DNA from: Abditibacterium sp.
GTDB taxonomy: Bacteria; Armatimonadota; Abditibacteriia; Abditibacteriales; Abditibacteriaceae
Reading direction: 5' to 3'
Length of the DNA: 64,000 bases
Assembly: GCA_965246885.1 (NCBI GenBank)
Contig: OZ251992.1
Span: 2,528,001 to 2,592,000 of the forward strand
This document shows, piece by piece, positions 1 to 42,000 of this stretch. Position 1 is the stretch's first letter, and every line of letters starts with the position of its first letter. The position numbers were made by a program.

Positions 1-3000
1 CCTCGTCCAGCAACTTCACGAGGTAGGGCCGAGACACGTTCAGCACATCGGCGGCTTCAAACGTCGAGAGTTCGGCCTCTACTGGCAGCAGTTGCACGGC
101 GCTCCCTTCGGCGACCAGTGCCAACAGGCGGGTGAGCATCTGTAACACCGAAGCGGGCAGCGCCACGACCTCATGGGGTTCGTTCTCGTCCCCCAAGCGC
201 ACCACTATAGGTTGGTCGTCCCCCTTGGCCGCGGCGCGGGCACCCAGTAGCGACACTAGACGAAGGCTCGACTCGCGCGCGATTTCACTGTCCTGCGCGC
301 TGGGGACGGTTTGGGGAAAAGCGTTGATCATTTGGACTCTTGCACCTCTTCGGCACTCTCAGCAGTTTAACGCAGCGTTGCACATATTGCATCTGGAGCG
401 ATGGAAGCGTCCAACGTGTCGCTTGCGTGTCGCTTGAGAGCGCTTTTGATCGTATAGAATAGGCGACATCTTGGGCAACTGAAGCGGGGCGCAAGAAACT
501 GCCCGGCGAACGTTCAACTTTGCGGGGCTTCACGGGCGGCTTGAAGTTGTTTGTAGGACAAGTAGAAGCGCAGCGAGTCGTCGAGCAGTGGCTTCATGCC
601 CAGTTTCAAATAGAACGCCTTGGCCCGTTCATGTTTGGCATCCACCAGAAAAAAGCGCACCGGAGCCGCACCGCTCTCGATCACGGCATGAGTACGTAAG
701 AGGGCGCCGGCGAACATGGGCTGGCCAAGACCGCACACTTGGAAGCGCGCATCCACCGCCAAACGCGCCATCAGCAACACCGGAATACTCGCTGGCATGC
801 CGCGCGCCAACTTGCTCGGCATCTCGTTGCACATGAGCGAGGGTGTAGTAGCCCGCGACTATTACCCGCAAAGAGAAACGTAGGTGCGGGACAGCATCGC
901 TTTTGGCGGCTGAGGGCTGATTGAACCAGAAAGCGGTCGAGTTCCGCTTCGCCACACGCAAAATCCGCGACCTCGTGTTCGAGGGACAATACAACGGGAG
1001 CCGACAACTCCTCCGGTTCAATTCCGGCCCGTCGCGGCTCACTCACCCCACACCGGCTTGCGGGTGAGGAGAGCGCAAAGCGGCGTTAGGTTCCACTGGT
1101 TCGTCCATCACCCGGCACAGCGCCTCGTAACCCTTGGAGGAAAACACCACCACCGACTCCTCTACCACCGCTTGACGCGCCTGCTCCAGCGACGCTTGCA
1201 ACACAAAGGCGCTCAGGTCGGTGCCGCGAGAAAGGGCCGCCCGCTTGAGCAACTCCTTTTGCTCGGCGCTTGTGCGGATGGACAAGCGCTCCTCGCGTCG
1301 AGCATCCAAAATTGTTGTGTTGCTGCGGACGCGGGCGGCCCTCGCGCGTGGTATCGCTTTGTGGGTAGTTGCCGCCATGATCTGTTCCCCCCATTTCAAC
1401 GCATGGGCAAACGTTGTATTCCCTTTTCCGTCGTCCTCACGGTCTGGGTGTCGAGGATAGCGGCAGTGGGATGAGAGTGGGCGCGGCCCTGAGAGTAGCG
1501 CATCTCGACACGCAATGCCTCCACCACCCTGTCCTACGTCCCGTTCAACCTCCAGCGCCGAAACGCCGAGTAGACGCATTTCCACGAAGGGTAGCTCTGG
1601 GGCAGGTAGCGCCACTGGCAGCCTGTTCGCAACACATAGAAAATGGCGTTGAGCAACTCCCGGCGCGGCAAGCGCCCACTTCTGCCGCACGCCGCTCGCA
1701 GAACAGGCGCCACCAAACGCCATTGCTCGTCGCTCAGGTCGCTGGGATAGACCGCTTTCGTTATCTTTGGCATACACGCCAGTCTAAATTACACCCCGCT
1801 ACGGAGACAAGCTCTGAGGGCGACGGGCGCGACGGGGCGCCGAGTTTCAATCCCTCAAAGCACGATTAAAGGCTACAACGAAGCGAACAAGATCCGCATT
1901 GAATCGAAAAGTTTCAATCCCTCAAAGCACGATTAAAGGCCGCGCTGCTTTTGCACAGCAGCAGTTCGCGCCCGTTTGTTTCAATCCCTCAAAGCACGAT
2001 TAAAGGACGCAGGGAAAGTCACGGGCCTGTCCGCGTTCCTTGAGTTTCAATCCCTCAAAGCACGATTAAAGGTTGAACGCGAACCGGGTGCGTGGGGCTG
2101 TCTGATGTCGTTTCAATCCCTCAAAGCACGATTAAAGGTTCCCCCTTCGATCCTTGCGGCCATCGAAAAAGTCTAGTTTCAATCCCTCAAAGCACGATTA
2201 AAGGTTCAAAGGGCACGTCGAACACAAGCGCACTTGGCCAAGTTTCAATCCCTCAAAGCACGATTAAAGGCCGGTTGCGAGCATCGCGGCGCCGACATCG
2301 TGGCCGTCGTTTCAATCCCTCAAAGCACGATTAAAGGTTACACGAGTCGTTTTTCAATGGCACATGGAAAGCGGAGTTTCAATCCCTCAAAGCACGATTA
2401 AAGGTATAGGCGACTGCACGCCCGTATTTGTCCAAGCGTTGTTTCAATCCCTCAAAGCACGATTAAAGGTTCAAAGGGCACGTCGAACACAAGCGCACTT
2501 GGCCAAGTTTCAATCCCTCAAAGCACGATTAAAGGGCGGCGTCGAAGCCGTCAATAGTCTGCGCGTAGCCGAAGTTTCAATCCCTCAAAGCACGATTAAA
2601 GGCTGCGCCGAAGCTCTCGACGCCGGTGGTTGAGCCGCTTGGTTTCAATCCCTCAAAGCACGATTAAAGGGCCCGCGAGGTAGAGGGCGATGGTTGTCGC
2701 AATGATGGGTTTCAATCCCTCAAAGCACGATTAAAGGGGACAGGCATGTTCGTCGAACGCACCATGTCGCGAACGTTTCAATCCCTCAAAGCACGATTAA
2801 AGGTTGGCGTGGTGGCAACTCGTTCCCGGCTCGATGCGTTTCAATCCCTCAAAGCACGATTAAAGGCCGAATGATGTCGAACGGGCGAAGTATCGGAAAT
2901 TGTTTCAATCCCTCAAAGCACGATTAAAGGGTTCATCATGGAAGTGCTGACCGGGCGGGTCGTGGACGTTTCAATCCCTCAAAGCACGATTAAAGGCGGC

Positions 3001-39000: not shown

Positions 39001-42000
39001 GGATGCGCGCGTTCCCGGCCAGTTCCACTTCGCCTTGCAAGAGGATTTCCTCGTTCTTGGGTGCCAATTGCGCGATGGAGTTCAAGCGTTTGTAGGTGCC
39101 CTCGTCTTTAATGAAGTAGCGCAGGAAGTCGTACGGAACGCCCGCTCCATTTTGCCAGATGGACAAGTAAATTGCCGTCGTGCGCGTGAGGGCTTCGCCG
39201 CCAAAGGTGGAAACTGCCGGTTTGCCGGGTGCGGCGCCGCCGTTTTGGTAGCCGCCGAGGGTCGCCACTTCCTCGAAGCGCATTCGCGCGCCGTCCAAGC
39301 GCACTTGGCCCAGTACAACGTCGGTCGTGCCGCCGCCCGAATCGAAGATGCACGCCCAATCGCCGTCGTGGGGCGGGTCGAACTGCGGGTAGCGGTAGTG
39401 GCCGTGTTGCAACAGGAGGTAAATCGCGGCGCAAAACGGCTCTGTGAAGAACTCCAAGGTGTCATTGGGGCCGACGAAGTGCGCGGCGCGGATGGCCTTT
39501 TCCAAGCGCGAGCGTTGCAAGTTGTAAAGAGTTTGGGTGCCGCCGCGATGCGAGTCGAGCACCGGCAAAGAAAAGTTCCACGCGACCGAGGCGGCTTCGC
39601 CGCCTTCGAGGTCGGGCAGAATAATCTGGCGGCGCAGCGTTTCGAGGTAGCGTTTAAGCAGCAAATCCACGCGGTAATTCGGGCCAAACTTCGCGACATA
39701 CGGCTCGCCTTCGGCGCGCAGGAGAGTTTTCAGTTCGGTCACGAACAGACCCGGTTCGAGGTCTTCGACCCGCCGTCGCAGGGCTTCGTAGCCGATGAAA
39801 AAGCCGACTTCATGGCCGTTGCGAAACGAGACATACAGCACGGACGGAAAGCGGTGCGGGTCATCGCGTCCCGCGACGGCGTGCGGATCAGTGAGGGGCA
39901 CAGCTTCCAGTCGGTCGTCGCGCCCGTCGCGCTTCCAAATGGAGGTGCCCGACGTGCCAAAATCCACGCCCAACACATAACGCGTGCGCGTCGTGAGGCC
40001 GCCGGGCGCGGGCACCATCAGGGATACCTCGCCCAATTGGTCGCCGCTCGCGCCGGAAAACACCACGCGCGCGATGCCCGCTTTGGCCATTCCGGTCGCG
40101 TGAATTGTCCACTCTTTGCGCCCGCCCGGCGCCAAAGTCCACTCGCCCGCTCCGGGAGTTCGCGCCTCAACTTCCATCCCGACCGGCCACAGGGGAGGGC
40201 GCAACACAAGCGGCGTTTCACCGGAATTGCGCAGCGACAACACGCGCTTGCGCGCGCGACCATCGAGCATCAGAAGCGTGGTTTCCACTTCCAAATGCGC
40301 CGGACGCGGCGACGACGCCAAGACCCACAACGGCTCCCACACGCGCGTGCGATTCTCCGGCTCGATGTCGAAGCCGTCGCGCGGCGCGCCGTCCCCCGTC
40401 GCCAGATAAAGCGGCACTTGCAACGGCTCGTCCACCGGTGCAGGCGCTTTACCGACCCAGCGCAACGAGAGGGGCACCGTCGTCGGCGCAAGGGAAGACG
40501 GCTTTTTGATGTCCGCCGAAAAGTGCGCGAGAGCTTGGCCGCGCACATCGAAGCGCACGAGCGACGTTTCTTCCACGCGCGCCCGCACCAGCAAGGCGCG
40601 CAGTCCAACCGCGCGGAGCGCCAAACTTGCGGAGTTCGCTTGGGGCGCGAACACCAAGCCGGGAGCGCCCATTGGCGCGCGAAGCGACATCGTCGCGCGC
40701 CCGCACTCCGGGCAAAAAGCGAAGGGCGGTTCAATGCGCGCTGCACATCCATCGGGATGAATCTGTTGACAGGTAAGGGGTTCGATGGTGGCTCCTAAAA
40801 CCACCTGTAGTGTGCAAAATGAAGCACTACGTCAGTGGCGTGGCCACGTAGCTTTGTGTGTTGTCGCAGCGATTACGTCTCTAATAAGCATGACGAATCG
40901 AGGAACACCGTTGCCCTTCATTCATTTTCATCCGAACAGCTTGCGGTCGAAGGCGCGATAGTTAATGGCCTCGGCGACGTGGTGCATCTCGATGTTCTGC
41001 GCCCCTTCCAGATCCGCAATCGTCCTCGACACTTTCAGCGTGCGGTCGTAGCCGCGCCCCGAAAGGTTGAACTGGGCAATCGCCGCCTTGAGCAGGTCTT
41101 TGGTCGCGCTGTCCATCTCGCAGTATTCGCGCAGTTCCTTGGCGCGCATCCCGCCGTTGCAGCCGCCCGCGCGCGTTAGTTGCTTTTCCCTTGCGGCGAC
41201 CACCCTTCTCCGCACGGCGGCGGAGCTTTCGCCCGCGCGTTTGCTCATCAGTTCGTCGGAAGAGAGCCGGGGCACTTCGATATGAATGTCAATGCGGTCG
41301 AGGAGCGGGCCGCTTATCTTGGCAAGGTATCTGCGGATCTGCGGCGCCGTGCAGGTGCAGTGCTTGCCCCCGCCGTTCCCGTCCGTTTTCATCCCGCCCA
41401 GCAAATGTCCGCAGGGACAAGGGTTCATGGCGGCGACTAACTGGAAGCGGGCGGGGAAGGTGAGGGACTGGGCGGCGCGGGCGATGGAGACTTGACCGTC
41501 TTCCAAGGGTTGACGTAGCACCTCTAAGACGTCGCGGTGGAATTCGGGGAGTTCATCCAAAAACAGCACGCCGTGATGGGCGAGGGAAATCTCGCCGGGG
41601 CGGGGGTAAGAGCCGCCGCCAACCAAGCCCGCGTGCGAAACGGTGTGGTGTGGGGAGCGAAAGGGGCGCGTCTTGATGAGGCTTTGGCCGGGTTGCACTA
41701 AACCGGCGACGGAGTACAGCTTGGTGACTTCGAGGGCCTCGCCAAGTTGCATCGGCGGCAGGATAGTGGGCAAGCGGCGCGAAAGGAGGGTCTTGCCGCT
41801 TCCCGGACTGCCCACGAGCAGGATGTTGTGGCCGCCGGCCGCCGCGATTTCCATCGCGCGCTTGACGCCTTCTTGCCCCTTGACGTCCGCCCAGTCGAGG
41901 GCGCTTTCGTGAACGGGTTCGTCGCTCATGTCCACGTGCGAGGAGAGCGGCTCGCGGCCTCCTTCGCGCAACAAAGCAAGGGCATCGGCCAGACTTTCAA

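Follow-up and report, generated by a model that had tools for sequence, protein, structure and literature searches.

The 3' end of comM in an Abditibacterium genome (G000) adjoins a long inserted stretch containing a CRISPR array of very large size together with a gene cassette centred on a tubulin-like protein, which raises the questions of how this DNA arrived and what the cassette does. The window, the whole stretch of 64,000 nt that was analysed, begins at contig position 2528001, and positions below are those of the window unless the contig is named. The 3' end of comM is present twice, as a 241 bp direct repeat with 99.585% identity by blastn (a single mismatch, at repeat position 211), at contig positions 2526895-2527135, outside the window, and 2568928-2569168, inside it. 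The left copy corresponds to an 89 aa Mg_chelatase_C fragment (Pfam), and the right to the end of the target gene itself:

40928..41168, no strand assigned: right copy of the direct repeat, the final 241 nt of comM including the stop codon (blastn)
40928..42535, minus strand: intact comM, the target gene (Pfam Mg_chelatase 1.4e-92, ChlI, Mg_chelatase_C)

The 41,792 bp enclosed by these copies is inserted DNA, its bounds being those given in the survey's finding (comM ends of about 241 bp, 99.6% identical, around 41.8 kb). Residues 17-535 of comM share 79-88% identity with the congeneric proteins, and the right flank of the island is syntenic in the related genome G011. Eleven of the 12 congeners have comM, many of them with extra 3' fragments of the gene downstream of it.

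As the survey had noted, the island has no recombinase gene that could be found through a Pfam search of its ORFs; neither Resolvase nor rve has a match anywhere in the genome, tblastn detected no serine recombinase remnant, and the three tyrosine recombinases of G000 are all distant from the island. In the congeners, the comM islands have a large serine recombinase at their far end, beside the displaced comM 3' fragment: in G010 and G012, where four such fragments were inspected, proteins composed of Resolvase, Recombinase and Zn_ribbon_recom domains lie at 0-5 kb from three of them and at 14 kb from the remaining one. The 3' end of comM is thus a repeated insertion site for recombinase-bearing islands in this genus, sometimes in tandem, each island having its own comM fragment, and with cargo including Dpd (nine genes), type I R-M, AbiE and candidate systems. 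A large serine recombinase, as in the congeners, is the likely mover of the DNA inserted in G000. As G000 lacks any serine recombinase, its own island would now be stranded, the enzyme having apparently been lost, to judge from the relatives. The proposal that the tubulin cassette is the cargo of a mobile island agrees with its position in inserted DNA and with the serine recombinases of the congeneric comM islands.

The left part of the island contains toxin-antitoxin genes, an insertion sequence fragment and a type I-B CRISPR-Cas locus, followed by a regulatory gene:

2..331, minus strand: 5' part of an HTH_17 (excisionase-type DNA-binding) gene (Pfam HTH_17 1.4e-9)
514..1046, minus strand: GNAT-type, TacT-like toxin gene, split into overlapping ORFs at 514-834 and 771-1046 (weak Acetyltransf_7, 0.0079)
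1043..1375, minus strand: TacA-type antitoxin gene (Pfam TacA1 1.2e-17, residues 164-235 of a 244 aa ORF)
1534..1773, minus strand: N-terminal 79 aa of an IS4/IS5-family transposase, a fragment directly next to the old end of the array (Pfam DUF4096 4.1e-25)
1844..15911 (contig 2529844-2543911), plus strand: CRISPR array of 214 identical 29 nt repeats and 213 spacers (exact repeat copies)
16049..16312, minus strand: intact cas2, 87 aa (67% identity to cas2 of the second locus)
16406..17158, minus strand: cas1 remnant (PADLOC Cas1b 1e-31, residues 130-250 only; tblastn pieces)
17119..17591, minus strand: cas4 split over two frames, 17406-17591 and 17119-17427 (two tblastn pieces)
17642..23514, minus strand: cas3, cas5b, cas7b and cas8b, interference genes, all open (PADLOC)
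23511..24149, minus strand: 212 aa ORF at the place expected for cas6 (position only)
24237..25247, minus strand: WYL-WCX regulator (Pfam WYL 7.2e-16, WCX 6.8e-20; PADLOC WYL 9.2e-39)

The HTH_17 gene has a PIN_3 partner (Pfam PIN_3 2.8e-9) which, with the left comM copy, lies just left of the window at contig positions 2526895-2527804, and the split GNAT-type gene is read as TacT because a TacA antitoxin gene adjoins it; the reported toxin-antitoxin pairs are present, one of them identified through its neighbour. A recount of the array likewise gave the 214 repeats and 213 spacers of the survey, the spacers being 34-39 nt long; one occurs twice, and none was found to have a full self-target. 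The array runs from its old, trailer end on the left to its leader end on the right, since a related contig, G011:C24, shares only the 18 left-most spacers. The interference genes have PADLOC E-values of 2.4e-157 (Cas3b), 2.4e-25 (Cas5b), 2.3e-24 (Cas7b) and 2.6e-9 (Cas8b), and the ORF in the place of cas6 has no match in Pfam, PADLOC or NCBIfam. Both cas1 and cas4 are broken, as had been claimed: the former aligns with its 400 aa paralogue only over residues 166-251 and 341-400, with 21, 42 and 84 bp tandem repeats inside the remnant at 16864-17068 (TRF), whilst the Pfam Cas_Cas4 match of the latter (8.2e-29) covers only the C-terminal half. The intact cas2 is an addition to the earlier gene list. 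A second I-B locus (contig 3124368-3133000) has two repeats, with three differences in 29 nt, and one degenerate copy, in agreement with the few, nearly identical repeats previously described.

The island is a mosaic, in which a low-GC type I-B CRISPR-Cas module is joined to a cassette of host-like composition. The GC content of the cas operon is 54.4%, within the lowest 0.6% of 8 kb windows in the genome, compared with 63.7% for the cassette, 64.6% for the WYL-WCX gene and 62.5% for the genome as a whole. The ORFs at 25327-26418 encode Arg/Gly-rich sequences without a family match, and are probably not genes. There is a little less than an even chance that the 41.8 kb arose from two or more insertions, in which an older element of low GC, with the CRISPR-Cas and toxin-antitoxin genes, was followed by the WYL gene and the tubulin cassette, brought in from a related bacterium next to comM, with the intervening repeat since lost. 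The composition changes sharply between 24149 and 24237, just left of the WYL-WCX gene (54.4% against 64-65%), and the tandem islands of the congeners, each with its own comM fragment, offer a precedent. The left flank and the repeat recur in G011:C24 at 97-99% identity, as do the toxin-antitoxin genes and the old end of the array; a protein search did not find the tubulin gene in G011, and the cassette orthologues in G010, G006 and G022 are at other places. However, G000 has no more than two comM copies, G011:C24 breaks off within the array, and genomic islands often have a mosaic structure already on arrival.

The cassette consists of genes on a single strand, separated by no more than 29 nt or overlapping slightly:

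26733..27446, minus strand: 237 aa protein without known family, last gene of the cassette (homologue only in G022)
27443..28357, minus strand: MotB/TolR-like protein, 304 aa (OmpA 1.7e-5; PADLOC ZorB1 1.7e-4)
28336..30072, minus strand: TolQ/ExbB/MotA/ZorA-like membrane protein, 578 aa (hhalign, structure model)
30072..30752, minus strand: C-terminal part of the FtsZl1 gene (in frame with the tubulin ORF)
30753..30755, minus strand: in-frame TAG, Thr in three orthologues (orthologue alignment)
30756..33437, minus strand: FtsZl1 (Tubulin_2) GTPase domain and middle region, 894 aa (Pfam Tubulin_2 1.4e-46, residues 6-351)
33467..33913, minus strand: 148 aa protein with four hydrophobic helices (hydropathy scan)
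33921..35348, minus strand: membrane protein with a TM helix, a vWA fold (about 95-312), a TM helix and an FHA fold (364-475) (model pLDDT 75; Atlas lead)
35373..36962, minus strand: 529 aa protein with N-terminal zinc ribbons and a possible beta-propeller (DZR 0.002)
36967..38202, minus strand: 411 aa coiled-coil protein with a Pro-rich tail (only coiled-coil-type matches, including ZorA profile tails)
38210..40804, minus strand: 864 aa protein with a zinc ribbon, a beta-rich part and an Hsp70-type nucleotide-binding domain with DFGTSGTS and DSGGGTTD motifs (family profile)

These amount to nine genes, not the ten reported, because the 197 aa ORF counted separately encodes the C-terminal portion of the tubulin protein; on the alignment with its orthologues, this ORF and the 894 aa ORF are a single gene cut by an in-frame TAG. 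The FtsZl1 protein of 894 residues described in the survey is a Tubulin_2 protein, but only the front part of the product: the orthologues in G010, G006 and G022 are single ORFs of about 1,110-1,135 aa, colinear with both pieces. The GLGSTG and GGTCSG loops are invariant in all four orthologues, and a Pro-rich stretch and the peptide FDFT form the end of the C-terminal part. The premature stop means that the cassette may not work in G000, where it is probably impaired.

Decay is evident across the island, in the IS fragment, the frameshifted toxin gene, the cas1 remnant, the split cas4 and the nonsense codon itself. That the cassette is already a dead remnant, deprived of the last 227 FtsZl1 codons and the conserved end peptide, is a credible reading to which we give somewhat less than an even chance. 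The TAG replaces a conserved Thr in a gene that is one ORF in all three orthologues, and neighbouring island genes are broken too; the same letters appear in two further public assemblies, although these come from two runs of one study that may be the source sample, and hence are not independent support. Against this, the eight other cassette genes are open and have the same length as their orthologues, whilst the piece beyond the TAG has kept its frame and 49% identity to the orthologues, so either the change is recent or both pieces may be made.

Most partner genes could be assigned to a domain family. The MotB/TolR-like protein has an N-terminal transmembrane helix with an Asp (D26), invariant in six of six homologues, and then an OmpA-like peptidoglycan-binding domain; its OmpA match of 1.7e-5 falls below the Pfam cut-off, but homologues reach 1.1e-13 for OmpA and 1.2e-8 for ZorB, which bears out the OmpA/MotB-like partner proposed. 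A MotA-like partner also exists, yet not where the weak ZorA matches (1e-4) had pointed, as these lie on the 411 aa coiled-coil protein and fit only the tail part of ZorA profiles. The real one is the 578 aa protein, of which residues 1-220 are TolQ/ExbB/MotA/ZorA-like and precede a helical tail of about 350 residues. Pfam MotA_ExbB does not match it directly, whereas hhalign aligns it (96%, E 2.8e-9) with two MotA_ExbB-positive proteins encoded next to other tubulin genes. Its model, of modest confidence (mean pLDDT 53; 60-84 over residues 10-220), resembles ExbB (Z 11.3), ZorA (Z 11.1 and 10.9) and TolQ (Z 10.8), although helical bundles can attain a Z of about 11 by chance; the top Foldseek matches are TolQ, with E about 1e-2.

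The family profile of the 864 aa protein matches DnaK nucleotide-binding domains at 6e-17, its ATPase motifs are invariant in nine of nine homologues, and one homologue exceeds the Pfam HSP70 cut-off (2.4e-6), in accordance with the Hsp70/actin-like partner of the survey. In the model of the vWA-FHA protein, the vWA fold has a Z of 9.2 (4fx5), with 47 of the top 50 rows vWA-type, and the FHA fold a Z of 8.7 (6ccd); the gene is homologous to one upstream of the tubulin gene in seven further loci (hhalign 97.7%, E 2e-12). Homologues of the zinc-ribbon protein reach 1e-7 for DZR, and its family profile has a weak match to a BamB-like chain (E 0.008). The four-helix protein is conserved in G010, G006 and G022, whilst the 237 aa protein has no match in Pfam, PADLOC or NCBIfam and no clear Atlas lead. 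The cassette belongs to the vWA/FtsZl1 operons, reportedly described in 2010, with the domain identities given here.

Within the family the cassette is patchy, occurring in 4-5 of 27 genomes at three different locations: the four genomes previously counted were recovered by protein search, to which the Pfam model adds a fifth, G007. In G010 and G006, a seven-gene core lies beside pheST. Across the phylum Armatimonadota, Tubulin_2 was found in 148 of 401 genomes, and is fixed or nearly so in single families (24/24, 4/4 and 6/7 genomes). The flanks are housekeeping genes in ten genome and ten metagenome loci, two of these 20 having a specific defence neighbour, one in each set (HEPN/Ymh; BrxF), and the Hsp70-like gene was found in 6/20 phylum loci. 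Homologues are present on nine large plasmids.

The role that we favour, though rating it just under evens, is accessory envelope or membrane remodelling, in the manner of a Tol-Pal system coupled to tubulin; the whole account, of a stranded and decaying comM island with an FtsZl1 cassette of envelope type, we regard as evenly balanced. The TolQ/ExbB/MotA-like and MotB-like proteins would form a wall-anchored, ion-driven 5:2 stator with its tail reaching into the cytoplasm, where the vWA-FHA and four-helix proteins would keep a GTP-dependent FtsZl1 assembly at the membrane and the Hsp70-type ATPase would turn it over, all acting together on the envelope. An anti-phage (Zorya-like) or anti-plasmid system is a less probable alternative, in which the stator would sense envelope damage at phage entry, as ZorAB does, and signal through its tail to the tubulin/Hsp70 assembly, such that the invader is blocked or the cell killed. 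The cassette lies beside CRISPR-Cas and toxin-antitoxin genes in a hot spot where congeneric islands hold bona fide defence systems, a second leg for this argument from company, which, with the patchiness in the family, favours defence. However, only one genome shows the cassette in such company, and given the housekeeping flanks elsewhere and the 2/20 specific defence neighbours, a general association of the cassette with defence is not supported. Tubulin_2 is also far commoner and more stably inherited in the phylum than known defence systems usually are, a distribution unlike that of a sporadic defence gene, although the fixed versions are other subtypes: the families concerned (f15, f31) have different neighbours, so this conservation may not carry over to the subtype of the cassette.

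Gene content also bears on both readings. The long helical tail of the stator protein resembles that of ZorA as outlined in the Zorya paper (PMC11946911), and ZorA and ZorB models reach 1e-7 to 1e-8 on MotAB-like genes in related cassettes; however, PADLOC has no ordinary MotAB or TolQR models, so such matches do not discriminate, and TolQ is the best Foldseek match. Trypsin-like peptidases or AAA_35-WD40 proteins adjoin the tubulin gene in three of ten loci and the plasmid homologues also suit defence, whilst no nuclease, TIR or other effector domain was found in the cassette by Pfam, PADLOC or NCBIfam, no PADLOC family was assigned, and none of 50,697 phage records has a homologue, which argues for the envelope. 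Something other than either role is slightly less likely than defence. Systems combining tubulin, HSP70, GTPase and vWA were predicted to act in conflict, as outlined by Kaur et al. 2020 (PMC7159879), making it too strong to say that FtsZl1 systems have had no role since 2010; the cassette shares their tubulin, HSP70 and vWA domains along with zinc ribbons, but lacks the P-loop GTPase by which they are defined there.

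Self-comparison of the region found a single long direct repeat, at contig positions 2526895-2527135 and 2568928-2569168, the two 241 bp copies of which are 99.585% identical, differ solely at repeat position 211 and enclose 41,792 bp of DNA. Together with the count of the CRISPR array and the family searches, this bears out the counts and coordinates of the survey's finding, which had read the cassette carried by the island as a tubulin-based anti-phage or anti-plasmid system. The principal features, in window positions, are as follows.

Features of the comM island
Just outside the window: left repeat copy, an 89 aa Mg_chelatase_C fragment
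Before the array: IS4/IS5 transposase fragment, 79 aa, matching DUF4096 (4.1e-25)
1844-15911: CRISPR array, 214 exact 29 nt repeats and 213 spacers of 34-39 nt
26733-40804, all genes on the minus strand: the cassette
40928-41168: right repeat copy, the last 241 nt of intact comM
40928-42535, minus strand: intact comM (Mg_chelatase 1.4e-92, ChlI and Mg_chelatase_C)

From its left end, the island holds a PIN_3/HTH_17 pair, a split GNAT toxin with a TacA antitoxin, the IS4/IS5 fragment and the CRISPR array; these are followed by cas2, a cas1 remnant, a split cas4, the cas3, cas5b, cas7b and cas8b genes, a 212 aa open reading frame (ORF), a WYL-WCX regulator and the cassette. Between the regulator gene and the cassette lie 1.5 kb without a credible gene; ORFs at window positions 25327-26418, which are rich in arginine and glycine and match no family, were rejected as genes. 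The toxin-antitoxin pairs at the far end of the island (window 1-1777 and locus L002) are of the PIN/HTH_17 and TacT/TacA types, the gene for TacT, a GNAT toxin, being frameshifted and split over two frames and that for TacA being open. The composition of the island is uneven: GC content is 62.5% in the genome, 64.6% in the WYL gene, 63.7% in the cassette and 54.4% in the cas operon, the last a value reached by just 0.6% of 8 kb windows of the genome. The step falls between window positions 24149 and 24237; hence the CRISPR-Cas part and the cassette differ in history, whether or not they arrived together.

A close relative of the left part of the island is found on a 32,217 nt contig of the congener G011 (G011:C24, loci L089 and L090), which matches the left flank, the left repeat and the toxin-antitoxin region at 97-99% identity before running on into the same array. 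Counting from the IS end, spacers 1-18 of this contig all occur in the same order within the first 20 of the Abditibacterium sp. genome under study (G000), and the next 98 all differ. As the two arrays have only old-end spacers in common, the leader should lie at the cas2 side, and both arrays must have gained around 100-190 spacers after these near-identical strains parted. The type I-B interference genes are open, with PADLOC matches for cas3 (2.4e-157), cas5b (2.4e-25), cas7b (2.3e-24) and cas8b (2.6e-9), and the position of cas6 is taken by the 212 aa ORF, which has no match in any family searched. The adaptation set beside the array is not all in working order, cas2 being intact, cas4 split and cas1 a remnant. 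The 5' part of this remnant (window 16864-17068) is filled by tandem repeats of 21, 42 and 84 bp, which encode a repetitive 'SPDRVSxWFSR'-like stretch in place of the Cas1 N-terminal domain. In a second I-B locus outside the window (contig 3124000-3133000), cas1, cas2 and cas4 are intact and 58-75% identical to the island pieces, and the repeats differ from that of the island at three of 29 positions; identity is no more than 30% for cas3, and no similarity is detectable for cas5, cas7 and cas8. The two loci thus have adaptation modules in common and unrelated interference modules. Growth of the array despite the broken cas1 and cas4 implies either that the breakage is very recent or that adaptation is provided in trans by the second I-B locus, and an array of 213 spacers that went on growing after the strains split, beside broken adaptation genes, is a puzzle.

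The survey had seen no recombinase gene in the island, and indeed none is present among its genes in the Pfam scan; genome-wide, searches for Resolvase and rve domains gave no hits in G000, and its three tyrosine recombinases are all distant from the island. The congeners are more informative. The comM gene is present in 11 of 12, many of which carry, downstream of the intact gene, extra copies of its final 130-180 codons. In G010, where intact comM lies at C3:1254339-1255892, such fragments are found at 1196498, 1165797 and 1120679. Each interval has a large serine recombinase (589-768 aa) encoded at or close to its far end, the three genes lying at 1211620, 1168896 and 1122385. Resolvase, Recombinase and Zn_ribbon_recom domains are found in these three as in a fourth, which adjoins a comM fragment in G012; AAA_25 proteins adjoin two of these recombinases. 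From these repeated fragments with their recombinases we conclude that the comM 3' end is a hot spot for tandemly stacking serine-recombinase islands. The cargo of the congener islands was scanned over 83 ORFs (loci L029, G010:C3:1236001-1256000, and L030 and L028, both on G012:C3). A Dpd system for 7-deazaguanine DNA modification, with nine recognised genes, adjoins comM in G010; the G012 cargo includes a type I restriction-modification system and a PNP/STAND protein, an AbiEi/AbiEii pair adjoins the G012 recombinase, and an HD-CE protein and two PADLOC candidate families are also held in the congener islands. This makes the comM 3' end a hot spot for defence islands in the genus.

The island studied here resembles serine-recombinase islands at gene 3' ends in having direct repeats of the target 3' end and an intact target gene, as the congeners do in having tandem islands with defence cargo; it is unlike them in that a serine recombinase gene, found in three comM islands of G010 and one of G012, is absent both from the island and from the whole genome. 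In a tblastn search of the G000 island with the ORFs of the G010 and G012 comM islands, the matches were comM pieces and a DUF1559-type gene, with no recombinase remnant. The site corresponding to that of the relatives' recombinase is occupied by the toxin-antitoxin genes, the IS fragment and the array's old end, and comparison with these relatives suggests that the recombinase was lost by deletion. With none left in the genome, the island would be immobile unless helped in trans; it is a stranded, decaying member of the serine-recombinase hot spot. The right comM flank is syntenic in G011, at 70-78% DNA identity. Among 12 congeners, a search for the regulator gene of the left flank found it in G011 alone, where it lies on G011:C24, the contig nearly identical in sequence, so the empty comM site could not be reconstructed.

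Within the tubulin superfamily no branch is more divergent than FtsZl1, and to our knowledge no function of these proteins has been tested. The GTPase domain of the island's FtsZl1 matches Pfam Tubulin_2 over residues 6-351 (1.4e-46) and has the T1 and T4 loops, the GLGSTG and GGTCSG motifs being invariant in all four orthologues. Its 894 aa ORF and the next one, of 197 aa, lie in one frame and are parted by a TAG at window 30753-30755. The orthologues in G010, G006 and G022 are each encoded by one uninterrupted ORF of around 1,110-1,135 aa; the alignment is continuous across the TAG, where all three have threonine. The TAG letters are identical, at a depth of about 34 and with no differences, in contigs of two more public runs, both from one study, which may be the source sample; no RNA run was listed among the public runs that hold this DNA. 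The part lost to the TAG includes a proline-rich stretch and, at its end, the conserved peptide D[LF]DFT; we take this layout to resemble the linker and C-terminal peptide of FtsZ, which bind membrane tethers. This order of proline-rich stretch and end peptide is seen at FtsZl1 ends across the genus (window 30072-30200; L008:3115-3834; L009:4042-4761). The cassette in G000 is probably impaired. A profile of the FtsZl1 family found no sequence relative among solved structures, and a search of the genome contigs with the tubulin alignment gave nothing beyond three known family relatives.

Several partner proteins could be assigned. A profile built from nine homologues of the 864 aa protein matches DnaK nucleotide-binding domains (E 6e-17), and the ATPase motifs are invariant in this family. 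The structural model of the 475 aa protein (pLDDT 75) predicts a vWA fold between two membrane helices (Z 9.2, rmsd 2.9 with 142 residues aligned to 4fx5; 47 of the 50 top rows are vWA-type) and a C-terminal FHA fold (Z 8.7). The DxSxS motif was not seen after the first strand, and the profile of the vWA-like family had no match by sequence; by hhalign (97.7%) the protein is homologous to the product of the gene that directly precedes the tubulin gene at seven further loci. The 578 aa protein has three hydrophobic helices followed by an all-helical remainder. Its family can be aligned (96%, E 2.8e-9) with two proteins that match Pfam MotA_ExbB and whose genes directly follow other tubulin genes. 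The structural model of the 578 aa protein resembles ExbB, ZorA and TolQ with Z scores of 10.8-11.3, which are modest for a helical protein, Foldseek ranking TolQ first. The family profile on its own returned coiled-coil noise alone; the TolQ/ExbB/MotA-type reading is adopted because three methods agree. The 304 aa protein has an N-terminal helix with an aspartate (D26) invariant in six of six homologues and an OmpA-like domain, whose match (1.7e-5, 25.5 bits) is slightly below the 27.2 cut-off, whilst homologues in the same position reach 1.1e-13; it also matches ZorB1 in PADLOC (1.7e-4). No kinase family was found in the cassette with Pfam, and a Walker A motif (G/AxxxxGK[ST]) is absent from every cassette protein. 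The 411 aa protein was considered as a MotA and rejected, since its weak ZorA matches cover just the coiled-coil tail of the ZorA profiles, and for the 237 aa protein the Protein Atlas gave no clear lead. Prediction of a complex between residues 265-864 of the Hsp70-type protein and the C-terminal piece of FtsZl1 scored 0.00 in a run without controls, which is evidence neither way, and a scan of the cassette for promoters and terminators gave counts close to those of shuffled sequence (3 and 35, with 2.1 and 26.1 expected), such that no inference was drawn.

The nearest published relatives are the vWA/FtsZl1 operons of Makarova and Koonin (2010; PMC2875224), for which vWA, kinase, GTPase and OmpA partners were described and membrane remodelling was predicted. 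As far as the available part of that account goes, these operons occur beside ordinary FtsZ and include many lineage-specific membrane proteins; the OmpA partner is present in several genomes but not all, and the kinase and P-loop GTPase are frequent but not universal. The cassette shares with them a Tubulin_2 GTPase whose long C-terminal part is unlike that of FtsZ, a transmembrane vWA partner and an OmpA-family partner, but lacks the protein kinase and the divergent P-loop GTPase. Its own features, relative to what that part describes, are the predicted cytoplasmic FHA fold on the vWA protein, the Hsp70-type ATPase and the tailed TolQ/MotA-like protein. It is a new vWA/FtsZl1 variant. Santana-Molina et al. 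(2023), in the portion available, set the Tubulin_2 group aside as divergent.

Of the defence systems, Zorya (Hu et al. 2024; PMC11946911, as seen in part), in which ZorAB is joined by effectors, has in common with the cassette a MotB-like protein with a transmembrane aspartate and a peptidoglycan-binding domain, and may also share its partner, a MotA/ExbB-fold membrane protein with a long cytoplasmic helical tail. The combination of aspartate and wall-binding domain is not specific to Zorya, being also that of MotB; TolR and ExbD have just the aspartate. The model of the 578 aa protein matches ZorA at Z 11.1 (rmsd 3.4, 183 residues aligned) and 10.9 (rmsd 2.9, 179 aligned), values that tie with ExbB (11.3) and TolQ (10.8), so that by fold ZorA cannot be told apart from TolQ or ExbB; the tail, of about 350 helical residues, is modelled with low confidence, and no PADLOC ZorA model matched the protein at E 0.01 or better. 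ZorC, ZorD, ZorE, ZorF and ZorG are missing, no PADLOC match to a Zorya effector was found in the other cassette proteins, and tubulin, Hsp70-type and vWA-FHA proteins stand in place of nucleases. The 5:2 ion-driven stators of Tol-Pal, ExbBD and MotAB are likewise resembled by residues 1-220 of the 578 aa protein, in their modelled fold, and in the presence of a partner with an invariant transmembrane aspartate and an OmpA-like wall-binding domain; unlike them, the cassette has a helical tail fused to the TolQ-like part and a linked tubulin-like gene, and has no TolA, TolB or TonB.

The survey had also taken it that FtsZl1 systems had been without a role since their prediction in 2010. This is too strong: Kaur, Burroughs, Iyer and Aravind (2020; PMC7159879), in the part available, predicted that DO-GTPase/GAP1 systems with tubulin, HSP70 and vWA proteins are conflict systems, so a conflict role for tubulin-like systems is already in print. 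According to the same part, the tubulin versions come from Firmicutes and Actinobacteria, and the likeness extends to a tubulin with a coiled-coil or helical C-terminal part, an HSP70-family protein, transmembrane vWA proteins, zinc ribbons and a membrane-proximal setting; the defining TRAFAC-clade DO-GTPase is absent from the cassette, which has no Walker A motif. No experimental test of FtsZl1/Tubulin_2 function or of a defence role was found in the literature searched, and the supplements of the 2010 and 2020 papers may list this subtype. A copy with the same layout lies on Deinococcus deserti plasmid 2 (locus L084, 110941-118592), where, in this order, two hypothetical genes, a tubulin-like gene and genes for a 411 aa hypothetical, an OmpA-family and an 859 aa hypothetical protein adjoin PD-(D/E)XK nuclease and UvrD-type helicase genes.

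As its most likely working principle, the cassette would couple an ion-driven stator, anchored in the wall, to a membrane-sited assembly of tubulin and Hsp70. That such a machine remodels the envelope is our tentative preference, at a little short of an even chance; that it defends against phages is rather unlikely, despite its setting in a hot spot with defence cargo in congeners and in the company of CRISPR and toxin-antitoxin genes. The cassette is patchy in the family, occurring in four of 27 genomes by protein search and five by Pfam model, at three different locations; homologues are carried by nine large plasmids, and both its domain vocabulary and the predicted ZorA-like tail of the 578 aa protein are in keeping with immunity. 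Twenty Tubulin_2 loci, drawn from 12 families within the phylum, were sampled, and six of these loci have an Hsp70-like partner; ten loci were picked for shared partner genes, 132 of their 154 called ORFs being scanned (the remainder were ten tubulin, four Hsp70-like and eight small ORFs). Trypsin-like peptidases or AAA_35-WD40 proteins, kinds met in predicted conflict systems, are neighbours in three of the ten: the former in two loci and two of the latter in one (L074:6896-7660, L080:12265-14051 and L066:13991-19740). However, the flanks in these ten loci are otherwise made up of sugar hydrolases, trp genes, transporters, efflux pumps and similar, and their PADLOC matches are to generic domains or to the loci's own MotAB-like genes, with the exception of one HEPN/Ymh gene; likewise, 65 upstream ORFs from ten metagenome loci include one BrxF gene and are otherwise housekeeping. 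Nor was a homologue found in any phage record searched. Tubulin_2 is also common for a defence gene, occurring in 148 of the 401 genomes sampled across the phylum, with 24 of 24, four of four and six of seven genomes in three families and none of 11 in each of two others, although neighbours differ for the fixed versions, which weakens this prevalence argument for the present subtype. The anatomy reported by the survey stands, and is richer than it described; a general link of the cassette with defence is not supported, given the housekeeping flanks and a specific defence neighbour in just two of 20 loci.

The more particular proposal, that FtsZl1 cassettes of this subtype form a Zorya-like class of envelope-anchored immunity, we consider slightly more doubtful than phage defence in general. 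Under it, a TolQ/MotA-type stator with a cytoplasmic tail would report phage entry to the tubulin-like GTPase and the Hsp70-type ATPase, which would assemble a membrane structure in place of the action of a nuclease; were this true, the comM hot spot of the genus would be a natural catalogue of such systems. Under either envelope remodelling or immunity, the locus and its relatives provide a fuller parts list for one FtsZl1 subtype, with a tailed wall-anchored stator, a vWA-FHA membrane protein and an Hsp70-type ATPase, and this makes the choice between the two testable with intact orthologous cassettes. The comM 3' end is itself a practical place to seek new systems, being a defence-rich serine-recombinase hot spot in a little-studied phylum. 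In the right flank of the island, at window 47909-51137, a 400 aa ORF with a PqqD-like domain (8.5e-6) adjoins a 440 aa ORF of no known family and a 269 aa ORF with a weak DUF4352 match, a group that may represent a peptide-maturation cluster.
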